Source: Moniliella sp. 'wahieum'
Lineage: Eukaryota
Direction of reading: 5' to 3'
Assembly: GCA_003971905.1 (NCBI GenBank)
Contig: RSEE01000172.1
Coordinates: forward strand, 1-58,739
Length of the DNA stretch: 58,739 nucleotides
In this document: piece after piece, positions 4,140 to 49,913 of the stretch
Layout: every line of letters begins with the position of its first letter
Numbering within the stretch: the stretch's first letter is position 1
Translations under genes and position numbers: made by a program
The notes under the pieces: model-generated
What the model saw: the letters and a program-made list of their open reading frames with translations, nothing else
Databases searched by the model: none
Told to the model about the DNA's origin: nothing

Positions 4140-4436
4140 ATCTCAATGTCATAAGATCGGCTGGGAAATCCTGCACACTTTTACGTCATAGGCACGTGCC
4201 GACCGATGCCACGTTCCCAGCCACCCGCAGCCAGAGAATCTCAATGTCATAAGATCGGCTGGGAAATCCTGCACACTTTTACGTCATAGGCACGTGCCGA
4301 CCGATGCCACGTTCCCAGCCACCCGCAGCCAGAGAATCTCAATGTCATAAGATCGGCTGGGAAATCCTGCACACTTTTACGTCATAGGCACGTGCCGACC
4401 GATGCCACGTTCCCAGCCACCCGCAGCCAGAGAATC
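4140..4436 (+). repeat. Perfect tandem repeat, 98-bp unit x3
   Basis: Unit atctcaatgtcataagatcgg...cccgcagccagaga starts at 4140, 4238 and 4336. Confidence 0.95.
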
Positions 4437-7536: not shown

Positions 7537-8561
7537 ATGGATCTTCGTGTAGGAGGCAAGTTCCGCATCGGCAAGAAGATTGGTTCGGGCTCGTTTGGTG
7601 ACATCTACCTCGGCATCAACATCATTTCCGGTGAGGAGGTGGCCATCAAGCTCGAGTCGATCAAGGCCAGGCACCCGCAGCTGGAGTACGAGGCGAAGGT
7701 GTACAAGTCCTTGGCTGGCGGCGTGGGTGTGTCGTTTGTGCGCTGGTTTGGCCAAGAGTGCGACTACAATGCTATGGTCATCGATCTGCTGGGCCCATCC
7801 CTGGAAGATCTGTTCAACTTCTGCCACCGCAAATTCAGCCTCAAGACTGTCCTTCTCCTCGCCGACCAAATGATCTCGCGCATCGAGTACATCCACTCGC
7901 GCCACTTTATTCACCGTGACATTAAGCCCGACAACTTCCTCATGGGTATTGGCAAGCGCGGGAACCAGGTCAACATTATCGACTTCGGTCTGGCCAAGAA
8001 ATACCGTGACCCCAAGTCCCACCTCCACATCCCTTACCGTGAGAACAAGAACCTCACGGGTACCGCCCGTTACACCTCGATCAACACCCACCTTGGTGTC
8101 GAGCAGTCCCGCCGGGATGACCTCGAGTCGCTCGGGTACGTCCTGATGTACTTCCTCCGCGGCAGCCTTCCGTGGCAGGGACTCAAGGCGGCAACTAAGA
8201 AGCAGAAGTACGACCGGATCATGGAAGAAGAAAATGACCACCCCACGGAACTTCTTTGCCGTGGCTTCCCCTCGGAGACGGCAGTGTACCTCAACTACTG
8301 CCGCTCGCTTCGCTTTGACGACAAGCCCGACTACAGCTATCTCCGCAAACTGTTCCGTGACCTGTTTGTGCGGGAGGGAGTACCAGTACGACTATGTTTG
8401 ACTGGTCCATTCAACAGCAGCGCAGCAAGGACGACCGTCGCGCTGCCCCGCGCGCCGACCCTGCTGCCCCGCTCCCTCGCCGTCGTCCGCTGATGGACGA
8501 GGCTGCGCATGCGTCGCGGCGCCCGGAGAATGGCCCTTTTGACCGCCCCGAGTACCTGTGA
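7537..8561 (+). CDS. HRR25: Casein kinase I (HRR25/Hhp1/CK1delta-type), with indels near the C-terminus
   Basis: [69 protein letters not shown] shift at about 8380 restores EGYQYDYVFDW, which reads on to TGA at 8561. Probable 5'UTR intron at 7103-7487. Confidence 0.93.
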
Positions 8562-8997
8562 ACACGTGAAACCCCATAACCCCCCAACCCTTCTTAACCC
8601 CCTGTTGAGTGGCGATCTTGTCGCCCTTAGTTCATCCGGGCCATTTTCTGTCCATGTTTGGCTCTTGAGGCGGCGATCCCACTCTCGCGCCCCGATCCCC
8701 TGACGCCCCCATGATATGGCCGGAGCCCCCCCACTGCCAGCAGGTTGGGCGAACTTGATTCCCCCGCCTCAAGACTGTGTTTGCAAGCCGGGAGAGGAAG
8801 GGGCGTTGACATAGGACGCGGATGGGCATCCTTGCCTCTGTCTCCCTGCCTTTTCCACTCCACGCTACTGTTCCAACTTGGTATTTGCCGTTCGTTCGTT
8901 CCTAGGGCCCGGGGACGGCAATGTATGTTTTTCGTTTGACATGAACGTGGTTGGTAGACAGCATGTAAGCTTGTATTTGTAATTTAGAGGTGCGTAC

Positions 8998-10391
8998 TGT
9001 TGGCCTAGGGAGCCGGACGGGCAGAAGGATGAGGAGAAGGTGATGGATTGGAGCCAGAGTTGGGTCTGGGTACAGAGGCATCTATATAGGAGGCTGGACT
9101 AGGCACAGGGACAGTGAGTCACACAGGAGAGAGTGCAGGGCACAGGGACAGTGACACGCAGGGACGTCAGCGTGGAAGCCGATGGAACCGAGGCGAACCT
9201 GGTCTACCGACTGGGAGCCAGAGGATCACAGTCAACACCCCCGCTGGCCAGGGAACCCGGAGACATCGGTTGTGGGATGAGCTCCTGCCAGTGGATGTAG
9301 AGAGGGGAGGACTTGAGTGGCAACCGGGACGAATGGCCTGGAGTTGTGCATGGCCACACGACTGGCCTACACCCCCGCTGTCCAGGATGACACCTGAACG
9401 AGCCGAGCGCTTGTGGTTGGTGTATTGTGCGACCGCCAGATGCTTGTAGAAGTCTTAGAAGTAAAAGTAGTAGGGGTTGCGCCCGAAGCGATTGGTGGGC
9501 AAAAGTAAAAAGCACCAGTTATAGGTGTAGTGAAAGAAAATTGGAAACTTGGAGTAAATGCGGTCCAAGGTCGTTGGCATCAAAATTGGATGCGTTTGGT
9601 AGTTGTTTGGTTCCGCATGCCTGGTGCCAGTGGGGTCCATTGGGCATGGGAAATGAACGGGCGCTATGCGTCAACCGTCTTGATCTGTTTGGGTTCTCTT
9701 GTTGTTGAAAAAGAGGAGTGGAAGAAGTTGGGTGACCACCCCCCCCATCCTTTCCCCAGGTGCCCCGGATGAATTGGCAATCCGGGGCGTGTAGCCGTGG
9801 GTGGGGCACTTGATGAGCAGCCACCCCGCTTTCTGCGATTCGCCTGCGCCGTTTTGTCGTTGGAGGAATTTCGTCTCGTTGACGATACCCGACACGTTTT
9901 GTTCCGTCGTGTGTTGTCCTAAAAATCATTGCCCCATCTGTGGGGGACGAGTGTGCCGATTGTGACGGTAGTATGCCGATTGTGGCGGTAGTATGCCGAT
10001 TGTGGCGGTAAGGTGCCGATTGTGGCGGTGGTGTTGTTGGGCGGGAGGACGGGTGTGTCTTGTGGGCTTGGCGGCTTAGCTTGGGCTTGTAGGCTTGGGG
10101 GTGGGCTTGCTTGAAGAGCGCTCCCCTTCCGGGGGGATCAGATTGTAGCTCTGTTGGCCTAGGGAGCCGGACGGGCAGAAGGATGAGGAGAAGGTGATGG
10201 ATTGGAGCCAGAGTTGGGTCTGGGTACAGAGGCATCTATATAGGAGGCTGGACTAGGCACAGGGACAGTGAGTCACACAGGAGAGAGTGCAGGGCACAGG
10301 GACAGTGACACGCAGGGACGTCAGCGTGGAAGCCGATGGAACCGAGGCGAACCTGGTCTACCGACTGGGAGCCAGAGGATCACAGTCAACA
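8998..10391 (-). mobile_element. Non-autonomous LTR retroelement (TRIM/deletion derivative) with identical 240-bp LTRs and 5-bp TSD CGTAC
   Basis: LTRs at 8998-9237 and 10152-10391, each TGTTG...CAACA. CGTAC at 8993-8997 and 10392-10396. A G-run (PPT-like) on the minus strand abuts the 8998-9237 LTR. A degenerate gag-knuckle-like peptide (KRRRR...HAPDC) lies inside. Confidence 0.93.
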
Positions 10392-10771
10392 CGTACGAGT
10401 GTTTGGCTTGCCTGCCAACGGATGTTGTTTGTCTCGGCCTCGGTAGGCGACATAGACTGTCGCGGGTGTAAGCGTCCTGGAAAAGCCCCAGCTCAAAAGC
10501 CCCAAACATGGAGAAGGACAGGTCTGTACGGATGCATGCAGCGCAGGGCACACGGCGCAAGCGCACGGTTTAACCCCTAACAGGTGAAGGGAGAAGCGGA
10601 TCAAGGAAGGCGAAAAAGCACAGTCTGCTGGCCAAGGCGATGGATGACCCAGGCGGACCTGGGGGTTGTTCAGGACGCCGTCTATGAACTGCCGTCGAAC
10701 GCGTCAACAAACAGCAAACTAGGGGAAGGGGGAAAGTGAGAGGGTGGGGGTGGGGCGACGACACCAAAAAG

Positions 10772-10868
10772 TGACTTCGCCCGGGCTCGAACCGGGGACC
10801 TTATCCGTTAACGCACGCTGCTAGGAGCGTGTTAAGGATACGTGATAAACCAACTACACCACGATGCC
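10772..10868 (-). tRNA. tRNA-Val(AAC), intron-containing
   Basis: GGCATCG-TGGTGTAGTTGG, anticodon stem TATCC/GGATA around TT-AAC-A, an intron of about 22 nt, T-loop GGTTCGAGCCC and a T5 terminator downstream. Confidence 0.9.
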
Positions 10869-11599
10869 ATTGGCTCAACAGTTGGGTTGAATATCTCCCG
10901 CGGCGCGTAGCGTTTTCACGGACCTACCAGTCAGAATCAGCACAGAGCAAGTGCCCCTCGACGTACGCTTTGCTGGCCAAGTACCCGGTAGACGTACACC
11001 AGGTTGAGCGACGTCCTATCAAATGACTAGTAGAGATGCACAGTATGGGACATGGAGAGTGCTATAGCAAAAGCGTCTTAATCCTTTGAGGGCATGCGGA
11101 GAGGAAGGAGAAGAGGAGCGAGTGAAAAGGGGCAGATTGTGGTTATCTATTTCTTCAATAGTGAATTGGGAGTCACTAGCCAGCACTGACGCTCGCAGAT
11201 TCGCAATGACCCAAATACCATGGGAGGACAAAAAAGTCGGTACCACCAGCGCAGCACCCTCCACTAATATACTGGTTCGCTATACTGCATCCATATCATT
11301 GACAGAGCTTAAGGCTGGGACGGGAAGCGCTACGCCTAAACCGACCCGTTCACCTTGCGTGCGTTGCCTGGTACGCCATACTGTGCTCGGATGCATATAT
11401 ACGACCGCTACTGTATGATCAAAAGTCGCTCATTCCAAGTGTTTGGCGCATGTGTCTGCCATGTAGTAGTATGGCAAGAAGGCAAAACCACAAATGCGTT
11501 ACTCAGACAGCTCATCGGCAGCACGTTGGTGCAACTTGAGGCTTGTCAAGCCCAAGCATGAGAGGTTCTCCAGCAACGGATCCTTCCCGGTATATGATG

Positions 11600-13304: not shown

Positions 13305-13816
13305 GCTCTGTCAATGAAATTCTCTAGTGTGGTGCTCTACTGCTCCACTGCCCTCCATGCTCCAGAACACAGAGGGTGAGCAGCTTTGCGCTCAAGCCGT
13401 GAGTGTGTGCTGGGATGGGCGTCGAGAGGGAGCACTCAGGAAAGGGCTCGCGCTCATCCTGCGAAAGTGCACTGGCTGACTTGGGCGACGCCAACGCGAG
13501 CTGGGCGCTGAGGAAGGTTACGCGGTGCTTCGCTCAATCATCATGCCACACCCTACACATAGGTCACGTGCTAACCCGGCACGTATGCTGTGGGCAAAGC
13601 GGCCAAGGAGGTTACCTCGCCGCGTCTGAGCAATGGAGCTTCGAATCTGGAATGCGCGTATGCCCCACCCCTTGAAGGCGCACAAGGACCACCACAATGT
13701 ATATGATGTCTGCGTCGGTCAGCAGGCGGATGCTCTGGCCATTCGTCCACTTTGGCACTTCAGCAAACATGTCTCGCAAGCCCCTATATATACTGGATCC
13801 ATATCATTGACAGAGC
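13305..13816. mobile_element. 512-bp MITE with 13-bp TIRs (GCTCTGTCAATGA/TCATTGACAGAGC) flanked by TTAA
   Basis: TTAA at 13301-13304 and 13817-13820. The same terminus recurs at about 11297, 13855, 23698 and 32296. Confidence 0.75.
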
Positions 13817-13999
13817 TTAAGGCAAAAGTATCACTGCGCCGAGGAAACACATCTCATTGACAGAACTTAGGCTGGGACAACGAAACGCTGCGCATACACT
13901 GACCCGTTCATCCGGCGTGTGTTGCTTGTTAACGCCAACCTCGTCAAGGAACCATGGGAATCGCCAGGAGATCAGGGCCCTCTGGTGCCCGCCATCCGT

Positions 14000-21957: not shown

Positions 21958-24437
21958 GGGGGGGCGGCGGCGGCGGCGGGCGGGGGGCGAGGGTGGGCAG
22001 GTGGGGCGAAGGGGTCGGACGCTTTAATATACGGGCAGGAGGTGATTGGGAAAGCGAGGGATGCACGGGGGCAAGAGTGCTGGCGTGTGCCAGGGCCAAG
22101 CAGGCGGCCGGAGGCACCCTACAGAGTGCGTGCAGGCCGACGCATTCTGAGATCTGAGATCTGCCGCGCTGGCGTCTGATCTGAGACCGAGTGCCATCCG
22201 TCCCCTGGGGGGGGCACTGTCGGAAATGCACCGGCTGCCGAAACGACACTGCGGCGACTGGCGAAGAATGCGAACGCACCCTGCGACGCCGAGTTAGAGG
22301 CTGGAAGATTGTTATTGAGCGGGAGCGCTGGGCCTGGGCAGCATTGCCCTTCCGGACGGACACACGTTTGCTCGGTACTATGTACTCGACGTACCCCACT
22401 GAGTACTACTGAGTACTGATTCAGTACCAGCCTGAGGACAATACGTCTGGGCATTCACATGCTCACATGTTCACACTAGCAAAAGCGCTTGGGTGCCATC
22501 GATGATCAACGTTCAACGTTCAACGTTCTACCTTCGACGTTCAGCTAGTCCCTATTCAACGTACCATGTACCAACGTACTCTACGTTAACTCCTGCCTTC
22601 ATTTTAGTCACTAGTCACTAGTCACTCCCACCATCCGAACGAGACGGCAGATGGACAGCCGTCACGCGTCACGGACACTGGCACCGCAGAAGGCAATTAC
22701 GGGGTACCGATTATCCGGTAATACATCCCAGTACCTCTATTACCTGTGTCAGGGTTGGATCCAGTACACAAAACATGTGTGAGTACACACGGTACGATGA
22801 GTAGGCTGCACCACTGTCACAGTGCAATGAGTACTGATTGATACTGAGGCCTGAGGAGGTCAGTCCGATGATTTGAAAAGTTGATACATACGGGAGCTGC
22901 GGATCAGGCTGTGTTCTGAGAGGGTTACGTCGTCTTCAGTGAGGCGTGGCTACAATAGCCACTTCCTAGTATTCGTACTAAAAAAAGTCGGAGTGATCAG
23001 TGACTTGACGAGTGATTCTCATGGGCACCAAACAGGGACAGCTGGGAATACGGATGGCGATGGAATTCGTATCTAGGGCGCGTGCCTTGCAGTGCCCGTC
23101 CTCTTTCAAGCCCCAGCACATTGGATGCATCACGCGTCACGAATGCCCCCCTCTTTTTCTGCCCCTGACTAAGTGGTGACTAGTGAGTGTGATTAGTGAC
23201 TGTCTTCAATGAGTGACTCGACTGGTTCATGACCAGGGCACTCAAGCGCCCAAGCGATCAGCGCTGCTCAGACCTCCCGCGAGTGACGAGCTGCTCCCTA
23301 GTCACTTGCACTTGCTTAGCGGCTCAGTGCTCAGCGGGGGCGCAGCATGTCTTAGATTTTAAGATCCTTCAAGGTCTCCAAGCTTCAGATCTATCTCAGA
23401 TCTCAGGCCTGAACCTCAGGCCTCAGGCCCCTCATTCCTCAGGATAGCTGCCGAGAAAACAGGCCACATAGGTTGGTGAAGCCGGAGCCCAAAGCGTCGA
23501 ATTGTGGCTTGAGGAGCTTGAGGGACTGCGGTAGGGACCGCGCGTCAGGTGCCGGGGACGCCCGACACGCGACAGGTTTCTCTGAAAGAGGTGATCGAGG
23601 TGATCGGTGATCTCCGATCATCGATCATCGATCATCGATCAAAGTTCAACGATTATTATTTCGTATTGAATCATCGATCAAATGTTTGTGTGCATTCCAT
23701 TGACAGAGCTTAAGGCTGGGACAGGGGGAACGCTACGTCTAAACCGAACCGTTCATCTTGCGGGGGTTACTTGGAGGCGCCACCAAGATTATATATGGGG
23801 CCGATGGAGGAAAGAAAAACAGGTGTTATATTCTCCGGTCTTTGCCTTACCGGTTCCCAGTTCCGGCTATATCGTAGTGTTCAGTTGAACGTGCAACGGA
23901 CGTTGACGTGAACGTAGGTTGAACGATGGAGCTATGAAGCTTGAAGGTTGAACGTTGAACGTTGATCGATGATCGTTGACGCGTTGCCGGAAGTGTCGGA
24001 TATCTACGTAAGCGCTAAGCCTCTTAGATCATAGATCTTACTTCTTCCTCTGAGATCTGATATCTGACATTGATCTTTGACAATATTGACACGTTGACAA
24101 TATTGACATGATGCATGATGCATGATAGAAGCCTGAGGCCTGAGGCGGCTCGGCGGCACGTCACCTTCATGCGTGAGCGCGTGAGCATAGCCTGGTTAGA
24201 CGTTAGGTGGCTGGCGGAACACACCAAGCGCGCCACGCGAGGAAGAAGGGAGAGAAGGGGAGAGGCAAGAGGCAAGAGGCAGGGAAGAACATTGAAAATT
24301 TGAGTGACGGGAACCCAGCTACTTATACCAAGCTTGTTGGTCGGCTCGGCACGGCGGCGCGCTGCTGGTCGAAGAGGAGGTTTGGGAGCGGCCTCTACTG
24401 GCTAAGAGTGATGGCAGCGAGAATGACTTGCCCGATG

Positions 24438-24582
24438 TTTAGACTGTGATCCCAGCTGCTCTTATCCCGGCTCGATAGCGTAGTGGTAACGCATCCCTGG
24501 CCCATAGGCGATGACATGGTTCGAATCCCATTCGAGTCTCCTTCTTTTCCTCACTATTTCCCCCGGGCTGTGCCTTCTCACA
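24438..24582 (+). mobile_element. Solo LTR (about 145 bp) containing a tRNA-like sequence (24469-24538), TSD CGATG
   Basis: T(G)TTAGACTGTGATCC...CTCACA flanked by CGATG at 24433-24437 and 24583-24587. Internal A box TAGCGTAGTGG and B box GGTTCGAATCC. Confidence 0.75.
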
Positions 24583-27199
24583 CGATGGGCTGGAGGCAAA
24601 CAGTAAACGTTAAACGGGGTGTGAATGCAAAAAAAGCCCCGAAACGGATACTGGTGACGCGCGGGACGTATCGTAATCCCCAGGCGGCCTCAGCGCCTCA
24701 GCAGGCCTCATCGGCTTATCGATCAAAAAATGATTAACTGACCATGTGATAACCTCGTGGTGGTACATGCTTGTCTATCGTTGTACCTTATGCATTACAC
24801 CACATGCATTTTTGGTGTGGAGCAAAGGCGACATGTCCGATTTCAGAAGCTCAGGCCTCCAACGAGAAGGGCTCGCATGCACTCACAGAGCGACAGTACG
24901 ATCAGTAGCATGTTTAACATTTAACGTTAACCACGTTTACGTTCCCGGCCGAAGTAAGTAATTGCGCACAGGCGTGTTGTGATCGTGATCTTTCACTGGT
25001 TGTGTTTTGGCAATCGTTTCTCAATGGCGTGCCTGTCCTACGCAGGGCGTCTATAGCTGCCGAGGCCTACGGGAGAGAAAGGAAGAATGAAGGGTCGTTG
25101 TCGCGGGGTTCTCATGTGCAGGCGACAGGCTGCAGTGTCAACGGGACAACACGCACCAGACGATGCATGAAGCTGTAAGCTTTAAGCTTCAATCCCAACA
25201 AGCGTCAAGCTTCAAGCCTTCTGGCGCAGCAGGGCGCAGCCAAGCCCTGCTGAGCCCCACAACCCCACCATAACGCGTAACGTGCCCTTCCTGTGGTCCG
25301 AACAGGGTGGGTGAGTGATCCAGGTGCACGTGACACGTGACGCATGATAATCGGTGATTCGATGATATGCAGGATGCTTTAGCACCAGCGGTGACCGGTG
25401 ACAGGGAACATGGGAAGGCGGGAGAGATCCCAGCGTGGGAGACAGACCCTTGCCTGGCAGTCCGCAGCAAAGCGCAGGCTATAGGCACCCGGGCTCCCCC
25501 GCCGGAGCAGGGCCGAGCGCAGCAAGGCGCAGCCTGCAGGGCACAAGCACCCAATCTATTTGTGTACAGGTGTACATACATCAACACATACACCATGGGC
25601 TGCACTCGTACGATTCGCCATAGGTACGAACGTGTGCTATTAATGAGTAGTTTTAACGTTTTTGGCTTTTGGCATTTAATATTTACGTTGTTAATAACGT
25701 TAATACGTTAATGCCATGCACATTCACGCAGTACGCCAGTGTGTGCCTGCGACTCGGAGAACCAAAGTCTCAGTATGTCTGACCGGTGCACCCCGTCCGA
25801 ACGCACACTGCCCGTCCGCCCAAGGGGGGATGCTGTTGGCTAAATTGGTTGTCTCACACCTCGGAGCAGACGCAGGAAGACGTTTTCGTGGCGCGGGAGG
25901 GAGAGGGTTACCGGTTACCGGTTATGCAGTACGTTGCACATGGATGATCGATTGGTACCAGCAATGCATGATGGATGTCGATGATTAATGATTAATGACT
26001 ATCGATTATCGATTAGTAGCTTGAAGCTGGAAGGGGAGCCGAAAGGGCACAGAACGTATGACATGTGACATGCATGACATGTGACATGTGACGTGCGACA
26101 TGCGACATGTGACATGGGACCGGGTGACCTGCTACCTGTCATGCCCTTGGCACTGACGCGTGACGCGTGACTGTCCATGGGCGCGTAGACTACAGGCGTC
26201 CAAAGTGTCCGAGTGCCTACAGTGCATAAGCACCAAGCGCCAAGCCCATCGTAAGAGTTAGAACCAGCATTTTTTCCCCAATCCTATGGGCTTCACGCGC
26301 GACGTGCGGTTTCCCCCGCATTGTAGGTTCTGACGCGTGACGACTGGAAAGAGCCAACAGCGCAGCTGTGGCGCTGAAACAGGAGTTGAGGCCCTTTCGA
26401 CTTTACTCGCACGCTCATCGAAATCAGCATTCATGGCGCTCATATGTGCTCAGCGCTCATATGTGCTCAGCGCTCATAGCGCTCATCCATAGTGTTTCTC
26501 TGGCCTCCGGCCTTTCAGCAGGCTCATCGTCTCATGCATACTTGTGTATATACTCTGTGGATACTATGATGCTTGCATGACAGTGTTGCCAAGCTGTCAG
26601 GAGGGTGTCTGGAGGAATAGGGGAACATGCTCTGTTGAACGTTGAACGTTGAACGTTGAACGTCGATGCATGATACTCACGAAGTCTTGCTTCCCAAAGG
26701 TACTATGAACCACGCGCACAAGAGAGTTAAAAAAAGGGCCCGACGTGTGGTATAGCACGGTTACGTTTAACCTCTTCCGCTTGAAGCTTCTTCGCCAGAT
26801 TGGCCCGATACTATCACCTCTTTCTTACTGAAAGAGGATAATGTAGGAGAAGTAAACAGGAAGGAGAAGCACACCAATGCCAAGCCGGTCGGACTCCATT
26901 ACTTCCCCTGCGAAAGTTACCACCTTTTTTAACGAATGATGGCTTGAGGAAATTACCGTGAGGGAAGCTCGCAGTCAGTCTCCTCTATATCGAGTCTTAT
27001 TTTCTCAATCAGCATACCTTTTCGAGATACTTCCATGCATGGCTTGGCGGTTTTTGATCCCTCTTTTCCAAAAGTTCTCTGCCTCGCTCCTCACTGAGAG
27101 ACTTACTCTGTTTTCCGTCTCTCTCCATGTCCTCTCTGCTCTAGTAGCTTCTCCTTCACGCAGGATTGCTCCACCCTCCACACTCGGGTCTCGACTCTG

Positions 27200-30325: not shown

Positions 30326-30951
30326 AATCGAGACAGCCTTTTCTCTCTGGAAGCTGGAGTAGTATTCTTCCAAATTCGAGAGGTGACAGGGAGGAAACCA
30401 ATGCTACAGTGGATTTGGCCTATTACCCCGCCGAACACGAGTTGGTCACCATCTCGTTAGTCGTCGCCGTCGCCGGCGGTCCCGCCTTCATGTTTCCCAC
30501 AGAGGGTTTAACGTACCCCAGTACTTCGAGCACCTCAGACGGTTCCCCTATGCTACCACTCTCTTTCCCCGGCGAAAAATTAGGGGCTACTCGCTCCTCG
30601 TCCATCCTACACTACCGACCCCTTTTGATAGTGTCCACGTCATCAATATCCATCGTGGCCTTGATATTGCTGATGTCAGAAACCTTATTTATTCTGACAT
30701 CCAGGATGTCAGCGCCATCTCGCCCCCCCCTTGCTATCCCTCGGGTCAAGGACGCGAGTGAGGTCAAATCTGTTATCGGCGATCACAACGACGTCAGTGC
30801 CATCAGTCTCCAAGCTTCAACGTTCAAAAGCAAAAGGCAATGGTCCCTGGATCTGCTCATGCAACCTCGATGGTGGCCGGTCAGAGGGCAGGCACACCTC
30901 GCATCGTTCTTTGGGCGAGGCGATGGCCCCGTGTTCCGCCGCTGTTCCGCC

Positions 30952-31095
30952 TGTTAGACTGTGATCCTGCAGCTGTTCTTATCCCGGCTCGATAGCGTAG
31001 TGGTAACGCATCCCTGGCCATAGGCGATGACATGGGTTCGAATCCATTCGAGCCTCTCTTTTCCTCACTGTTTCCCCGGGTTGTGCCCTCCCACA
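30952..31095 (+). mobile_element. Solo LTR (144 bp, TG...CA) containing a tRNA-like cloverleaf (30986-31054), TSD CCGCC
   Basis: CCGCC at 30947-30951 and 31096-31100. Acceptor stem GGCTCGA/TCGAGCC, D-arm GCGT/ACGC, B box GGTTCGAATCC, and TTTT just downstream. Confidence 0.85.
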
Positions 31096-31719
31096 CCGCC
31101 TCCTTGAATGTGTTTGCCGCGTATTCGCTGCTTCGCCACAGTTGACCAACGATGGGCCAGACATTTGTGCTCCATGCATCACACCACTACTTTTCTTTGC
31201 ATCTCGTCCAAGTAAGCGATCTATGGGCGACCGTGACGCGTGACGAGACCTGGAGTCCAGATGGTCCTCGAGGGTGATGCAATCGCACTGGTGGTGGTGG
31301 TCTATGCCAACCAGCAACGCCTACAGAGGAACATCAAGCAGTGAGTCGCCACCAGGGCTAAGCTGCGAACCAGGAAAAACAGGAGAGAAAGCAACGGAAC
31401 TCCCAGGCCTGAGGAGGAACTGAAGGGGCATTGGCCAAAGCACGAGCCACCTGATGGCTCAACAGACCGCTATGCGCCTCACTAGGAGACCACCGGGCCC
31501 ACTGTTGCCACGTGGCTGGCTAAGTCTTCTTCAGTTAGCTTACCTACTCAAAAGCTTTGTTTTCTTCTTGTAGCAACGCCTGTATTTGCCTTGCCTCCAC
31601 CTGTATCCCGCTCCCGCTTATATACTCGATACTCCTCTCTCTCTCCGCTGTATTCGCTGTCTGCATCGTAGAGACTGTTGTGTCTCGCTTACGTTCTGGC
31701 ATACTTGCGTCGCTACACC

Positions 31720-31870: not shown

Positions 31871-31951
31871 TTTCCCATTTTTTCACCGGCCTCACGTAGT
31901 TCGAAGAGTACTAGAGTACTGGTAGAGCTAGTGACTAGTGACTAGCGGGTA

Positions 31952-32061
31952 GTGAAGCTTGAAGCTTGAAGAGTGTGAAGCGAAGCTTGAAGAGCTAGTG
32001 AAGCGAAGCTTGAAGAGCTAGTGAAGCGAAGCTTGAAGAGCTAGTGAGGCGAAGCTTGAAG
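31952..32061 (+). repeat. Minisatellite, 23-bp unit gtgaagcgaagcttgaagagcta x about 4
   Basis: Read directly from the sequence. Confidence 0.9.
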
Positions 32062-32429
32062 GATTATCGATTGGCATGAGATCCGAGATCGCAGTAGGTG
32101 ATCAGTCGATGGCGCCGCAAGCAGCAGGGCTGTACTGGTGCTGAGTGTAAGGTGAATCCCACGGCATCACAATATGGTGGGCGTGAGTAAAAAGGTCCAT
32201 CGATCATCGGCCTGAGCAAAGGAGCAACTCAAATAACGCAGGTGGCCCAGACCGCGTACCGGAAGGTGTTGGTACATGAGAGCACTGTGACGCCTTTAAA
32301 GCTCTGACAATGATAGGGATGCAGTATAGAGATAACTCCACTCTCTCCCTCTCAGTGGCATGGTTCGGCGTAATCGGTAATTTGATGTCCTCGACAAAAG
32401 TGCAGCACGGTGCTGTGCCACCATAATCG

Positions 32430-43002: not shown

Positions 43003-44064
43003 ATGCGGGCACGCATTGCGTCTCGCAGACCTGGTGCGCATGTGAGGGTACCTGTTGGATCCGCGCGCCGAGATTTGCGTCCAGCGAGGCCGGTGGGGCG
43101 TGGGGCTGCGCGCCAACACGCAGGTTGCCGAGGGGGAGATTGTGGCTGCTTTTCCTCAAGGCTCGTTTCTTTTTCTTTCCGCACTGTCGGACCTCCTGCG
43201 GAGCTTCTCTGTGCCGAGACACGGATGGGACCGACGCTTGAACTGGCGCTTTGTCTGTTGTGGGAGTTTCTGCAGGCCCGCGTTCGCGCTGGCGGGCTTA
43301 CCCTTACTCTCTGCCGGAACCCGTGTGCTGCCGCCGCTGTGGCCCTGGACGGAGCCCGAGCTGGCTACGACGAGGCAGCGACATTGGATGCATCTGCTGC
43401 GGCGCACGACGGTGGGTGCGCGATGCGTGTCCCGCGCCCGGGCCGCGCAGCACGACCGGTGGAGCGGGATGGGCGAGGACAAGATGTTGGCGTATGGTAC
43501 GTTGGATGCGGTCTTGACTGCGGACCGGATTGCGTTTCTGCAACGCTGCTTTCCCTGTGCGCGCGCTGCCAGTCCAAGCCAGCACGGGGACCAACCGAAC
43601 CCACCGGGGGGGGGACGACCGTTGCGGGACCTGCATGCGGCGCCGCCGTCGTGTCGCGCTGGTTGGCGGGATGCGTTGGCGCGGGCTGCTCGGTGGTAAG
43701 TTCGCGTGCGTTTGTGCTGGACGAGCAGATGGGGCTGGCGCTGTGCCCGCTGGCGGACGTGTTCAACCACTGCCGCCCGGACAGAATGGGTGCAGCTGGA
43801 GGTAGGCGAGGATGGATGGCAGTGATGCGCGCCGTGGGCCGGCTGGGGCCGGGGGAGGTGTACAATACGTATGCGCGCTGGGTCGGGCGGAGCTGCTGTG
43901 TCGGTATGGGTTTGTGCCAGCCTGGTCGGGTATGCCGGGTCGGATTCCGAGGGGATTCCGAGGGCGACTCGGAGGGCGATGGGGCGGAGGAGGTGGAGGG
44001 GGCGGCGGCGGCGCTAGAGGCAGCGGTCAAGGCGTATCTGGCTGGCGGGGTGCTGTTGGGGTAA
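43003..44064 (+). CDS. SET-domain protein lysine methyltransferase (Rkm/SETD6-like, frameshifted)
   Basis: G.GLRA...VAEGE...FP, SVVSSRAF, LCPLADVFNH, GEVYNTY, ELLCRYGFV. Start is approximate. Confidence 0.8.
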   Translation: MRARIASRRPGAHVRVPVGSARRDLRPARPVGRGAARQHAGCRGGDCGCFSSRLVSFSFRTVGPPAELLCAETRMGPTLELALCLLWEFLQARVRAGGLTLTLCRNPCAAAAVALDGARAGYDEAATLDASAAAHDGGCAMRVPRPGRAARPVERDGRGQDVGVWYVGCGLDCGPDCVSATLLSLCARCQSKPARGPTEPTGGGTTVAGPACGAAVVSRWLAGCVGAGCSVVSSRAFVLDEQMGLALCPLADVFNHCRPDRMGAAGGRRGWMAVMRAVGRLGPGEVYNTYARWVGRSCCVGMGLCQPGRVCRVGFRGDSEGDSEGDGAEEVEGAAAALEAAVKAYLAGGVLLG

Positions 44065-44381
44065 ACGAATAGGAGGCTGTAACTCATGCCGGCCGGAGGC
44101 GGGGAATGCTCTCTACAGACACAACCCAAAGCATGCATATGCGCTGCCGCCGGACTAACACCACCCGTGCAGAAGAGGCCTGAGCAGGCCGACACAGAGT
44201 GGGCACTGGACACGGGGTACCGCGTACGCACGCTGCCCGTCGCGTGTGGCGCGGCGGAACGCACCCGCAGCCCGGGGCGGAATTCCGCCTGGGCCAGGCA
44301 GGCGCCCGAGCATTTTTGCGTCGCCTGGCCTGGTGTGTGGGCTGGCCGAGCCGCAGCCTCCCTCCACCGCCACTGCTGCTC

Positions 44382-46018
44382 ATGAGCGCCTCGCCAGTCC
44401 GCACCGAAGCGGCGGAGCGCGAACGGCAATTAGCCGAGACGCTGCGTGCGCGCCGTCGTCGCTCTTCCGCCGCCGAGCCACCGCCCACCGACCCTCGGTC
44501 TCGCGAACGCTCGCCCCACCCTCCACAGCGACGCGACCGAGACCATGCGCATGAGCATGAGCAGGAGCTTGAGCTTGAGCTTGAGCGCGACAGGGAACGA
44601 ACTCGCGATCGCGATCCCGACCACACTCGAAGCGAGACCACATGCGGGACCGTGAAAAAGACAGGGACAAGGAAAAGCGACCGCGACCGCGAACGAGACC
44701 GTGACCGCGACCGTGGACCGCGACCGTGACCGCGAACGCGACCGCGAACGTGATGGGAACCGGGACTGGGATGCTCGTCGGCGTGGACGGAACGAGCGGG
44801 AGAGTCGGGCGTCGCGTGACTATCGTGACCGTGACCGCGAGCGTGACCGGGGTACGAGGGGGAGAAGGAGCGGGAGCGGGCGGGAGAGGAGAGTGCGTGC
44901 CGAGCCCGTTCCGCAGTGGCGTCCGCGCACATTTACCAGCACGAGCCGGACCACACGTTGGACCGTACGGTGTTTGTTGCGTCGCTGAGCCAAACCGTGT
45001 CGACGCACACGTTGGGCCAGTTTTAGGCGCTCAACCTGGGCATGGAGGAGGTGGTGGATGCGCACATTGTCATGGACAAGGTCACGCGCCCTCCCAAGGG
45101 CGTGGGGTACGTTACGCTCGCCACGCGCCAAGAGCACAACGTGCGCTGCAGCTCACAGGCCATGTATTGTACGGCATTCCGGTGCAGGTGTCGCCTGTTT
45201 CGTTCCTTCCCTCCCACGCCGGCGGGGCTGCTGGCGCAGGCGCCGGAGGCGGAGGCGGAGCCGGTGCCGGCGTCGGGGCCGGCTCGACGGCGGGGAGAAC
45301 CCCGAGGCACGGCTGTATGTGGGCAGTTTGAACTTCAATCTGGATGCGCCGGCGGTCAAATCTGTCTTTTCCGCGTTGGGCCGGTGGAGTATGTGGACCT
45401 GCACCGGGAAGTGACGGGCAAGTCCAAAGGGTTTGCCTTTGTGCAATTTGTCGAGCCGGCAGACGCCCAAGCCGCCCGCCAGCGCCTCAATGGCGTCGAG
45501 ATTATGGGACGGCCGATCCGGTGGGGCACGTCAAGCCCGAGCCTGGCCAGCTCCGCTCCCGTCTCGCGCCCCGGCCCAGCCGACAGCATGGAACCCACCG
45601 CGCCTTCCTACCTGGACGAAGGGGTGGCGGGCGCCTGGACCGCCGATGCGCGTGCGACGTTAATGCAGAACCTCATGTACCGCGCACGGCGGTCAGCCGG
45701 CCGCCGCTGCCGTGCAGGCCATCCCGCCACCGCCACTCGACGGCGGTCAAGCTGGCCAACATGTTGATCCGGCCGAGGAGAGTGAGCGCACTGGGCGCGC
45801 GACATGGCGAGCGAGGTGGAGGAAGAGGTGCGGCGCAGTACGGGCCCGTGGCGCGCATCTGGCTCGACGAGCAATCGCAGGCGACATTTACGTGTGCGTT
45901 TCCGCGACCCGGGCGCGGCGCAGCGCGCGGTGCAGCGCTGCATGGGCGCCACTTTAACGGCCGCGCCATCCAGGCCCACTCCATCCCGGAAGCCATCTTT
46001 GCGGCCAAGGTGCGTAGC
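44382..46018 (+). CDS. RBM39/RBM23 (CC1/Rsd1-like) splicing factor: RS/RD-rich N-terminus, 2 RRMs and a UHM (frameshifted)
   Basis: RD/RE repeats, RTVFV.SL, KGVGYV, RLYVGSLNFNL, TGKSKGFAFVQF, and a C-terminal YGPV..I.LD...LHGRHFNGRAI. Confidence 0.85.
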
Positions 46019-46313
46019 GCTGGGCATGGCCGCACCGAGCGACAAAATGGAGAGATGCGATGTGCTGCAGTTGGTTTGGCGGCACAGCTGCTCGTAGGCC
46101 TCGTTCCGTTAGCGTCTGAATAGAATGGGAATGGGGAATCAAAAACGTGGTTAATCAACAGTGTGTCCTGGACTCCACCAGCGGCCCAAAAAAATCCTGC
46201 GAATTAATATAAGCCCTCGTCCTCTGCGGTCTGTCGGCACGAAGATTTTGAGCCCACCGCCACGCCACTGCGACTGCCGCCGCGACCGCCGCTGTCTGTC
46301 TGCTGGCCTGCGC

Positions 46314-49300
46314 ATGTCCCTCCGTCGTGCGCTCATCGCCCGAGTCAGCCAGATGGACGCCAGCGTGGACCCTTGTGCCTGGCGCGGTAGCCGACGGGGC
46401 GTGGGGGCTACCTTCGGTGTTCGTCTGCGCCAACCAATCGCGCGTGCTGCTCGCCGCGCCCGAGGGCACGACCCGCCGTGCGCTCGACAAGCGTCTCGGT
46501 CTGCCCATTCCCACGCTGACACCTACGAATGCGCCGCCGAGCTCGAGCGCGGTGGTGCTCCTTCCTGCTGCTACGGCTGCTGCGGCCGGGGGTCTGCACG
46601 GCACGTTGATGAGCATTGCGGATGGTGCGCGGGCGCGGGTGGAGCAGTTGCCAGCGAAACTGACGCAGGGCAAGCACGTCCCCCGCTCCAACTCATTGGT
46701 CCGACCAATACACGTCATATCGTTGCGCTCGCGCGCGCGTTCAGTCGGCGCGACGGGTTTGGGCTCGAGGTGACCGAGGTGACAGCGAGACGCACAGCGT
46801 CGCCACGCCCGTGCACCAGGACCCGTCGCTGTCCATCTACGCCCTGCCCATCAGCCTTGCCGCCTCGAGCGAGCGGCCGAGCAAAAAGCGTCGCCCGTCA
46901 CCGGAACGCGACCTGCCGCCCGACTACCTGCACAAAGTGATCGCAACTATGTTCAATGCGTCTGGTCTGCCCGGCGGGCGCGCCGAGGACGCCGATCCGG
47001 CCCAGCTCGGCCCGTCGCGCAACTACCTTACCCGCCCCTTGCCCTTCCTCGTTGCGCCGGTCCAACTGTCACTGCCTTCGCCGCACGTAGGGTTCGGGCC
47101 CGACGGGGCGAACGCAACGTCGCTTCCGCCCGAGGTGTGGTGTATGCGATTGAAACGGCACCCACCATGCCGAAAATTGACCAAGCGCGCGCCGCGGCGT
47201 TTGGCTGTCCGCGCGGCCCGCACATGCGCGGCTTGCGCGACGGCAACGCCCGTCCACATTTCCCGCCCGGTCGGGTGGGTGGTGCCCGATCTGAGCGCTG
47301 GAGAGGCGCTGCCGACATGGGAGGAAGGTATGCCGCTCCCGTCCGAGCCGAGGCAACGGCAGCTGTTGCTGCAAGCTCGTTGGATGAGTGTCGTGGAAGC
47401 CAACCCGCCCGGACGGCAGGGCAGGGCGTGCAAGGGCTCAAGAAGGCCGAGGCGGCGTTGTCCAAGGCCAAGGGGGCGAAAGTTGTGCCGGGCAAGGAGG
47501 AGGCGCATGCGGCGCAGCTGCAAGAGCTGGAGACCAGGTTGGCCCATGCCCGGGAAGCGCATGCGCGGTACGAAGAGGTGGTCAGTGTCCCGCTCGAAGA
47601 GGTGACACTGACTGCGGACCTGGTCACCCAGTCCCCGCTTCCGGGCGGAGCGATGGTGCAGGTATACCTACCGTCTGAAGCCTATGTCGAGCCCTTTCTC
47701 GCCGAGGCGCCCAAACTGTTTGCGCGCTACCCCACCCAAGCCACGCTGCGCGCGGTGCTGCATATTGTTCCTCCGGCGGTATGGGAAGACGAGCGGTACC
47801 AAGCGTTTGTCCAGTCGCTCGGCAATGGCGTCGAGCACATCCTCTCCTCTCCTGCGTACTGTGCCGACGAGCTGTCCTATCCCCGTGCCGCGCTCGGCTT
47901 GCACAAGGTGTCCCACCTGGACCGGGACATGTTTAGTGTTCCCCCCTATTCGCTCCAGCCGCGCAAAACCACAGACAACGCAACGCCCCTAAGCGAAAGT
48001 TTGTTCTTGCGTCTCATGCCGCCGCCACAGGGAAGCGCGATTGTGCGCCTGTCGGACCCGACAGCGGGGGCAAGGGGATTGTCCAGCCGAACCTGCAGGC
48101 GCCGCTGCGCTTCCCCCGACGACAAGTTTGCGCAAACGCCGATGAGGAGGTGTTCTGTTCGTTTGAGCGCGAGATGCTAGCGTCGGGCTACGTGGAAGGA
48201 GGCCGGAAGAGCAAGCGGCAGATGCGTGCCGAGGGCAAGGTGGAAGCGTGGTACGAGTACAAGAAGCTTTCGGAGCAGGTGCGGGCCGAGGTGGCGGCGC
48301 GCTCGGCGCCTCGGACCAAGAAGGAGTGGGAGCAGATTGGTGACCCCGCTGGGTACGGGCTCGGCGTTGCCCAGTCGGGACCGCAACGTGTCCAGCACGC
48401 TGGTCGAGTACGACCATCGGCCTCGGCCGTCGGCACGCAGGGCACAGCGGCGTATGGCACGATGCTCATGGACTGTGGCGAGTCGACGCTGGGCCAGCTG
48501 TGCCGGCGTATGGGCGCGGAGCGGGCAGGAAAAGTGCTACGGGATCTGCGGCTGCTGTTTATCTCGCACAAGCATGCGGACCATCTGCTGGGTGTGTTCC
48601 GTCTGCTGGCAGCACGGGCGGCGGTACGTTAACCTTTGGGCGATCTTGGGTGCGGTGCGTTTGGACTGATTGATTGACTGATATTTTTTGTTTGCCCCCC
48701 CCCGCAGCTCAACCCCTCGACGCCGCTCTTCCTTGTCACATGCGACGAGGTGTACGGTGCGATCAAGGAGTGGGACCAGATGGAGTCGCTCGGGCTCTAC
48801 ACGTCCAAGGGGGGCGGGGTGTACTATGTGCCGGCACAGTCGATCCGCCGCACTGCGTTGGAGTTGGACGGCACGTTGCTCGTGCCCCCGGCGCCCGCCC
48901 AGGCCTACAGCCCCAGAACCAACAGGTAGCCAGCTACGGGGCTATTGGCATAGCCACTCCAAGTTTGCCAAGCCCGAGCAGGTCGAGTCCCGGGTGCGCG
49001 AGCTGGCCGAGTACGGACTAAGGTGGACACGGTGCCGGTCAACCACCGGTGCTTGCATGCGTATGGCGCTGTGGTCACGCACACCTCGCAGCCGTACGGG
49101 CAGTGGGGCTGGCGTATTCCGGCGACACGATCCCGTCCTCGGCGCTGGCCAACGCGGCGCGGCAGGCCCGGGTGGACGTGATGCTGCACGAGGCGACAAT
49201 GGGCGACGACATGGTGGAATGCATTTGTCAAGCGGCACTCGACGATGAACCAAGCGCTGGGCGTTGTCGCTGCCTCCGGCGCACCGCTGGCGATCCTGAC

Positions 49301-49913
49301 GCACTTTAGCCAGCGCTACCCCAAGCTGCCCAAGCTGGGCAGCGTGGCAGAGGGCGGGGCGGCGGTGGTGCTGAGCTTCGACATGATGCGGCTGCGCTTG
49401 TCGGAGGCGTGGAAGTTTGGCTACTTTATGCCCGCCCTCGAGATGCTCTACCGCGCCGACATGGAGGCGAGCAGCATGGACGACGCGTCGCTGGCATCGC
49501 TGGCGTCGCAGCCGTCGCGGCCTTCGCAGCCGCCGCGGCCGTCGCGGCCGACGGGCGACTGGACGTACTTTGTCTGGCAGCTGACGCGGCGGGGCGACGG
49601 GGGCGCGGGCGCGCTGCCGCCGCTGACGGATGGTGGAGCACGCTGGTGCGCCTGCATGGGCAGCGGGGCGGTGCGATTGGCGTGGCGGCGGTGCACGTGG
49701 CGGCGGAGCAGGACGGGGTGCGGGGCGTGCTGCGCGCGGCGGCGGGCGAGGCGGGCAAGGTGGCGGCGCTGGCCGCGGCGCACGTCGACGGCTTCCGGCC
49801 GGCGGTGGTGGCGCGTGCGCCGACGGCCGAGGCCGTGTGGCGCCGGGCGGGCGGCACGGCGCCGTGCCCGCTGGGTCGCGGCCGAGGCCCAGGCACTGCG
49901 CCAGATGGAGTGA
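46314..49913 (+). CDS. TRZ1: tRNase Z long form (ELAC2/Trz1), frameshifted, with a C-terminal extension
   Basis: PEGTTR, GGLHG, PSRDRNVSS, MDCGESTLGQL, FISHKHADHLLG (HxHxDH), AYSGDT, MLHEAT, LTHFSQRYPK. One intron at about 48624-48706. Confidence 0.9.

Follow-up and report, generated by a model that had tools for sequence, protein, structure and literature searches.

The element that occupies positions 8998-10391 on the minus strand of the analyzed stretch (58,739 nucleotides of contig RSEE01000172.1 of Moniliella sp. 'wahieum', hereinafter the window) belongs to a non-autonomous type of LTR element that depends on Copia; this copy is young, and its PBS corresponds to a half-molecule of tRNA-Tyr. 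We consider it highly probable that this mini element is a non-coding parasite of Copia elements that is primed by half of tRNA-Tyr, and that the 16 bases which the tip of its LTR shares with a tRNA-bearing LTR are a relic; its transcription, packaging and helper, as well as the origin of the 16-mer, we infer from the signals described below. The element class, the PBS on the tRNA-Tyr anticodon loop and the Helenus LTRs are already described in the accessible portions of Kojima 2024 (PMC10886601). A literature search of incomplete coverage found no report on the mini family itself, and the examined part of the supplement to Kojima 2024 (PMC10886601) contains no mention of Tyr, Ustilag, Tilletia or Exobasid.

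Anatomy and age of the mini element

The element is 1394 bp long and consists of an interior of 914 bp between two LTRs of the TG...CA type (3' LTR, 8998-9237; 5' LTR, 10152-10391), which are identical at 240 of 240 bases; it is flanked by the short TSD CGTAC at 8993-8997 and 10392-10396. The identical LTRs and the intact TSD had been noted in the initial annotation and are confirmed here, and they bear out its view that the insertion is very recent. The interior has a PBS at one end (10138-10151) and a PPT region of 14 bases, abutting the 3' LTR, at the other (9238-9251); it had been claimed that no TGG-type PBS follows the 5' LTR, which is correct, but a non-canonical PBS is nonetheless present there. 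A second PPT, which matches the main one at 13 of 14 bases, lies 134 bases upstream of it (internal positions 767-780, window 9372-9385); if this upstream tract is used, the segment in between (internal 781-900, window 9252-9371) joins a long LTR of 374 bp that starts with TGT. Each LTR carries the 16-base U3 tip (9222-9237 and 10376-10391) and, at LTR position 150, the motif TATATA (10237-10242, also 9083-9088), a putative Pol II promoter. The 5' leader contains 20-bp tandem repeats (9950-10029), the copy number of which varies from 2 to 5 across elements; they weakly resemble the 5' leader of the Copia C family introduced below (z 2.4, with 2.1 for a gypsy leader), and a fold of the leader was considered and dismissed (z -0.67). 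Apart from the TSD, all these features are on the minus strand.

The mini element has no gag-pol coding capacity, as is typical of non-autonomous LTR retrotransposons. The possibility that it is a coding ORF was considered and rejected: its 238-aa frame has no match in Pfam, the frame that starts at the internal ATG amounts to 85-89 aa in 32 of 43 copies, and the substitutions relative to old copies are spread evenly over the codon positions, although the latter test is weak, the old copies being decayed. With its two LTRs, PBS and PPT, lack of coding sequence and proposed movement in trans, the element resembles TRIMs as characterized in the available text of PMC10886601, from which it differs in that its 1394 bp, with an interior of 914 bp, exceed the limit of 1000 bp stated there, so that it is not a TRIM in the strict sense.

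A gene for an HRR25-type casein kinase and a tRNA gene with an intron flank the insertion. Proteins of Ustilago, Tilletia, Ceraceosorus and Jaminaea are 93-94% identical to this kinase, which places the host among the smut-related basidiomycetes; within the stretch 7537-8493 (plus strand), the kinase gene has no introns, and its 3' part shows apparent indels that are probably sequencing errors. The tRNA gene (10771-10868, minus strand; 380 bp from the mini element) appears by eye to be tRNA-Val(AAC), and is mis-called by ARAGORN as Stop(tta). Targeting of tRNA genes by the mini family was considered and dismissed, as a tRNA call was obtained in few mini-type loci (2 of 30, 2 of 30 and 0 of 15), with each pair consisting of overlapping loci.

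The genome holds 284 candidate LTRs of the mini family; 40 of these were scored, and 40 of the 43 resulting matches were 100% identical over the full length. The 15-mer that spans the LTR end and the PBS has 122 matches with at most one mismatch, and the PPT/LTR junction has 102, some Copia copies being included in both counts; the young family can be put at approximately 80-100 units. Decayed mini copies at 76% identity and old solo LTRs are present beside the identical copies; hence, the family is old and underwent a recent burst. Among 32 junction records, 13 show a perfect TSD, 9 are in tandem and 10 are neither, in an assembly that is rich in indel errors.

The half-tRNA primer and the candidate helpers

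When reverse-complemented, the 14 bases that follow the 5' LTR read as an anticodon arm with GTA. The PBS of the window copy pairs with positions 27-40 of spliced tRNA-Tyr(GTA) at 13 of 14 bases, the exception being a C opposite A37; beside this C-type PBS, there is a T-type that is complementary at 14 of 14 bases. The terminal CA of the LTR could additionally pair with positions 41-42. The tRNA-Tyr genes of the host confirm the match to the primer: 29 of the 31 matches to a pattern for these genes have one common exon 2, of 15 sampled matches, 14 are genes for tRNA-Tyr that carry G26 and A37, and three more genes that were inspected also lack G37. ARAGORN places the intron of the first of the 14 genes between positions 37 and 38. 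Patterns for an intron-less tRNA-Tyr and for one with G37 had no matches in the genome; the host genes carry A37 and an intron. At least 32 tRNA-Tyr(GTA) genes are present (L120-L134, L211-L213), their exons being identical and their introns variable, and 28 of the 29 introns from the pattern search end in G.

Priming of this kind has precedents. In the available parts of Kojima 2024 (PMC10886601), a PBS of this type is attributed to Copia-50_PHord and to several Helenus elements of rusts, and anticodon-loop priming is tied to Copia. The mini element shares with these fungal Copia and Helenus elements the PBS on the anticodon loop of spliced tRNA-Tyr, the 5-bp TSD and a probable Copia helper, but its host is a smut-related basidiomycete rather than a rust or an agaric (PMC10886601, accessible sections). 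Ty5 and Drosophila copia, as far as presented in the portion of PMC5371799 at hand, provide the precedent for half-tRNA priming, with an internally cleaved tRNA that primes at the anticodon arm; unlike in those elements, the primer here is tRNA-Tyr, not initiator tRNA-Met, and the mini element is non-autonomous.

A search with the PBS also revealed a second family: 5 of the first 30 matches belong to Copia C, an element of 5.27 kb with 211-bp LTRs and the protease-integrase-RVT_2 order of Copia. Its PBS is identical to that of the mini element at 14 of 14 bases, including the C that does not match the tRNA (present in 5 of 5 copies examined), its PPT is likewise identical at 14 of 14 bases, and its LTR starts with the same TGTTGAC; the genome, that is, contains an autonomous protease-integrase-RT element with both the PBS and the PPT of the mini element. 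Copia C has 126 LTR candidates, of which 40 were scored, and it is young, with many pairs of 100% identical LTRs approximately 5.06 kb apart. Several copies (L095, at 2356-2358, L091, L093 and L094) have a stop immediately before the long pol frame.

Of 204 RVT_2 candidates, 150 were scored, and 21 Copia and 7 gypsy loci were sampled; 8 LTR families of Copia and 2 of gypsy resulted, and no clean LTR pair was obtained from 3 of the Copia and 2 of the gypsy loci. Four Copia families (A, B, C and N) all have a PBS of the tRNA-Tyr type; the RTs of this group are 58-73% identical to that of Copia C, compared to 30-40% for the other families, and the group forms a clade (support 81/95, drawn open). 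The initial annotation had proposed a helper of the Ty3/gypsy type. This proposal did not hold: the LTRs of the two gypsy families (7 loci) start with TGTCA, and their PBS, PPT and termini all differ from those of the mini element, so that these two families give no sign of gypsy dependence, whereas Copia families match it in the PBS, the PPT (identical in Copia C and N) and the first 7 bases. Since a two-sequence search found no long match between the mini interior and Copia C or N (best E 0.007), the assignment of the mini element's helper to Ty1/copia is made from these short signals. The body of the mini LTR yields z of 2.8 against Copia N, 4.2 against a solo-only LTR family and 0.3 against Copia C, the likeness to Copia N and the solo-only family residing in its 3' half; this, like the lack of a long interior match, speaks against a simple origin from Copia C.

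In the proposed cycle, the mini RNA would be transcribed from the LTR by Pol II and packaged with the Gag-Pol of the helper in Ty1/copia particles primed with tRNA-Tyr. The minus strand would start on the 5' half of tRNA-Tyr(GTA), via positions 27-40 of the anticodon arm, and the plus strand at the main PPT or, occasionally, at the second one 134 bases upstream, whereupon the Copia integrase would insert the DNA with a 5-bp TSD, a short end of the TG...CA type being sufficient. A comparable pair is RLG_Cereba/RLG_Quinta, which is recognized, in the accessible part of PMC11302176, by identical PBS, PPT and LTR termini; here, the match extends over the PBS and PPT but only 7 bases of the tip, the bodies of the LTRs are dissimilar, there are several candidate helper families, and the elements belong to the Copia superfamily.

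The mini element probably draws broadly on the Copia group with a tRNA-Tyr PBS, and Copia C is the best match and the likeliest helper at present. It appears to be rather unlikely that the main helper is instead Copia N or Copia B, the latter having the largest numbers among the young families. Such a role would fit the mini/Copia B composite described below, the 30 or so, perhaps more, RT matches of one identical score, both sampled representatives of which are Copia B, and the resemblance of the 3' half and the U5 end of the mini LTR to Copia N. Yet among the first 8 bases of the usual Copia B PBS, only 7 agree with the mini element, and the PPTs of the two are different. For Copia N, there are 25 LTR candidates, and both full-length copies are old, with LTRs 94-97% identical to the query. 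Copia C, by comparison, is young and matches both signals exactly.

The tip shared with a tRNA-bearing LTR

Read on the minus strand, the mini LTR starts with TGTTGACTGTGATCCT, and the tRNA-bearing LTR at window position 30952 starts with TGTTAGACTGTGATCCT. The window contains two solo copies of the latter on the plus strand, both Helenus-like: one of 144 bp at 30952-31095, with the TSD CCGCC, and one at 24438-24582, with a damaged start and the probable TSD CGATG. In the genome, there are approximately 50 candidates, 83-97% identical to the window copy; of 24 contexts with the exact start, 19 have a perfect 5-bp TSD, and 20 of 30 loci yield an ARAGORN tRNA call, mostly Trp(CCA). Thus, this family has the hallmarks of Helenus, a tRNA-like unit inside a TG...CA LTR and a 5-bp TSD, whereas no tRNA-derived sequence is found in the LTR of the mini element. 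No paired copies were detected among 41 matches (40 of the 50 candidates scored), 25 exact starts and 41 matches of another search, and none of the sampled loci has a PBS or a PPT. Its sequences fit a solo-only Helenus family as listed by Kojima in the available text of PMC10886601, where solo-only families and tandem arrays are further points of likeness to the fungal elements described here; the mini element itself departs from Helenus in having a TATA and no tRNA in its LTR, a length of 1394 bp and two working PPTs (PMC10886601, same portion).

Some tRNA-LTR copies share their flanks (window 30947-31100 with L032 and L048; L044 with L054 and L059; L058 with L060), which makes them parts of larger repeats that carried them along, not insertions in their own right. 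A further old solo-LTR family, of the TG...TA type, comprises 78 candidates, with no pairs among 43 matches, and is related to the 3' half of the mini LTR; one of its members (L096, G000:C40:414630-414842) sits in a tRNA-LTR just before the B box.

The link between the two tips is real and confined to the tip, as far as can be judged by sequence comparison. The 13-base core occurs 257 times in the genome, compared to 5 occurrences of the reversed control, and in the sampled loci, 80 of 86 mini contexts and 24 of 27 tRNA-LTR contexts have it immediately at the tip of the LTR; 10 further core matches in these loci belong to neither family. Among the 78 pairs that can be formed by 13 LTR families, this is the longest match anchored at the 5' end (16 bases, the next being 11), and none of 200,000 randomizations that kept the first 8 bases reached its length. 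Hence, a common terminus with one indel, located at the tip in most copies and followed by dissimilar sequence, as the initial annotation had it, is well beyond chance. Once the first 17 bases are removed, the two LTRs align at the chance level (z from -0.5 to 0.2), and the 3' LTR ends have at most 3 bases in common, which is outside the top 12 pairs. The tRNA-LTR tip has an extra A relative to the TGTTGAC of the Copia and mini group.

The shared 16 bases look like a trace of common history rather than an integrase docking site, and would be a relic left behind either by common descent or by two parasites that switched templates at the U3 tip. A more far-reaching version of common descent, in which both LTRs derive from a single LTR, with the tRNA unit and the Pol II promoter part exchanged such that only the tip remains recognizable, we regard as a minority option. 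It accommodates the non-random tip and the fact that older mini LTRs read GATCCTCCGGCTC, with CCGGCTC recurring in the tRNA-LTR past a 16-base gap, and it is in line with the origin of Helenus by insertion of a SINE into a TRIM LTR that is proposed by Kojima in the accessible sections of PMC10886601. The extension past the tip, however, lacks significance (the match is attained by 48 to 160 of 300 shuffles), the tip-trimmed LTRs align at chance, and the mini LTR has no tRNA-like Rfam match at E up to 10, in a scan that also missed the neighboring intron-bearing tRNA. The suggestion that a tRNA replaced the TATATA promoter likewise finds no footing, given that no similarity is detectable beyond base 17. 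Two related ideas were rejected: a decayed tRNA in the mini LTR, with an A-box-like stretch at 17-36, is not significant, and an addition of the first 38 bases onto an LTR of the solo family conflicts with the chance-level alignment of the 5' part (31 to 88 of 200 shuffles).

Probable primer copying and template switching, and alternative ends

The T-type PBS, the exact complement of tRNA-Tyr, is present in 5 of 45 distinct mini interiors and has 10 matches in the genome. It closes one mini array as a 14-base overhang before the flank, with both upstream units being C-type, and it is located at the far end or at the junctions of otherwise C-type arrays on C1, C11 and C32; at the end of the C1 array, the next base could equally be a copy of G26. 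In one of the five Copia B copies examined, a full-length element (L214:331-5361, G000:C33), the PBS is the exact complement of tRNA-Tyr, and base 15 is unchanged. Such sites apparently have been rewritten by copying the tRNA primer from position 40 to position 27. The G26 of eukaryotic tRNA-Tyr is dimethylated, which would stop reverse transcription.

Alternatively, the T-type sites could be survivors of an ancestral lineage, or patches acquired from the RNA of Copia N or A, given that old mini copies and Copia N carry a T-type PBS. This seems distinctly unlikely to us in view of the position of T-type sites at the ends and junctions of C-type arrays, the change of the Copia B site to the exact complement within 14 bases with base 15 retained, and the distribution of the T-type interiors over backgrounds with 3, 4 and 5 leader repeats, even if the repeat number is labile.

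Exchange between families is documented by a composite on C37 (L192, G000:C37, about 43460-49875), a single insertion with one TSD, GCCTC, which consists of a mini LTR, the whole Copia B interior, a Copia B LTR, the mini interior and a mini LTR, in this order, with both crossovers located in a short likeness of U5 and PBS. Template switching between co-packaged RNAs, as treated in the available part of PMC6894440, would explain this composite; it may also be an assembly error or the outcome of recombination with a DNA circle. This is the only mini recombinant found, and its partner is Copia B, not Copia C. A pattern search for a foreign LTR followed by a mini interior returned no such case, its two matches being mini LTRs with a dropped base (the mini-type end of the C37 composite is invisible to the pattern). 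The composite has the long 374-bp start of the mini LTR and amounts to a coding element headed by a mini LTR.

Tentatively, and with somewhat less than even confidence, we envisage the tRNA-Tyr Copias as one particle pool, with several helpers and two parasites, the Pol II-dependent mini element and the Pol III-dependent Helenus, that swap terminal modules by template switching; the reverse transcriptase would copy the half-tRNA from position 40 to 27, stop at G26, and pass the copy on in approximately one of ten insertions. If true, this would be genomic proof of priming by half of tRNA-Tyr, and would contrast with Ty1, in which the primer reportedly is not inherited. The rewritten PBS, the second PPT and the mini/Copia recombinant can be regarded as natural read-outs of half-tRNA priming and of recombination across families.

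Natural end variants show that a long shared LTR tip need not mark an integrase site or a helper. Four mini copies, compared to 57 distinct right flanks of ordinary copies, have their start exactly at internal position 781, which gives them the tip TGTAGG. Of these, three have a perfect TSD (CCACA, GGTAT and GCCTC), and the fourth is fused to another LTR, which suggests that the upstream PPT is a second working PPT. A candidate relic of a Copia C LTR in internal 781-900 was discarded (z 1.2). Another mini insertion is bounded by two U5 ends and has the perfect 5-bp TSD CTTTT. Because the 781-start and two-U5 insertions carry perfect TSDs, integration works without the 16-mer. Accordingly, we regard as extremely improbable the original proposal, by which both families are moved by one autonomous, probably gypsy, lineage with the 16-mer as the attachment site for the integrase: the position of the 16-mer at the LTR tip in most copies is beyond chance, and identical LTR termini are one criterion for helper/parasite pairs in the accessible part of PMC11302176, but the full 16-mer is found in none of the 10 sampled autonomous LTR families, with at most 7 of its bases in any of them, the gypsy LTRs start with TGTCA and also differ in PBS and PPT, the 3' LTR ends of the two families match at no more than 3 bases, non-mini sequence follows a mini LTR and PBS only twice (a truncated end and the Copia B composite), and mini insertions whose U3 tip differs, or whose ends are both U5, have perfect TSDs.

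The head-to-head LTR junction of the CTTTT insertion is located at G000:C23:473915-475552 (L010/L011), and inverted or fused LTR junctions are also present on C4, C32, C46 and C145. Elsewhere in the window, a short dispersed repeat has four copies (11277-11315, 13789-13823, 23682-23790 and 32299-32332), the spacers at 22490-26680 and 31950-32060 abound in 7-base units, TGAACGT and TGAAGCT among them, and three identical tandem units of 98 bp (4140-4436) lie upstream of a frame that resembles ribosomal protein S28e.
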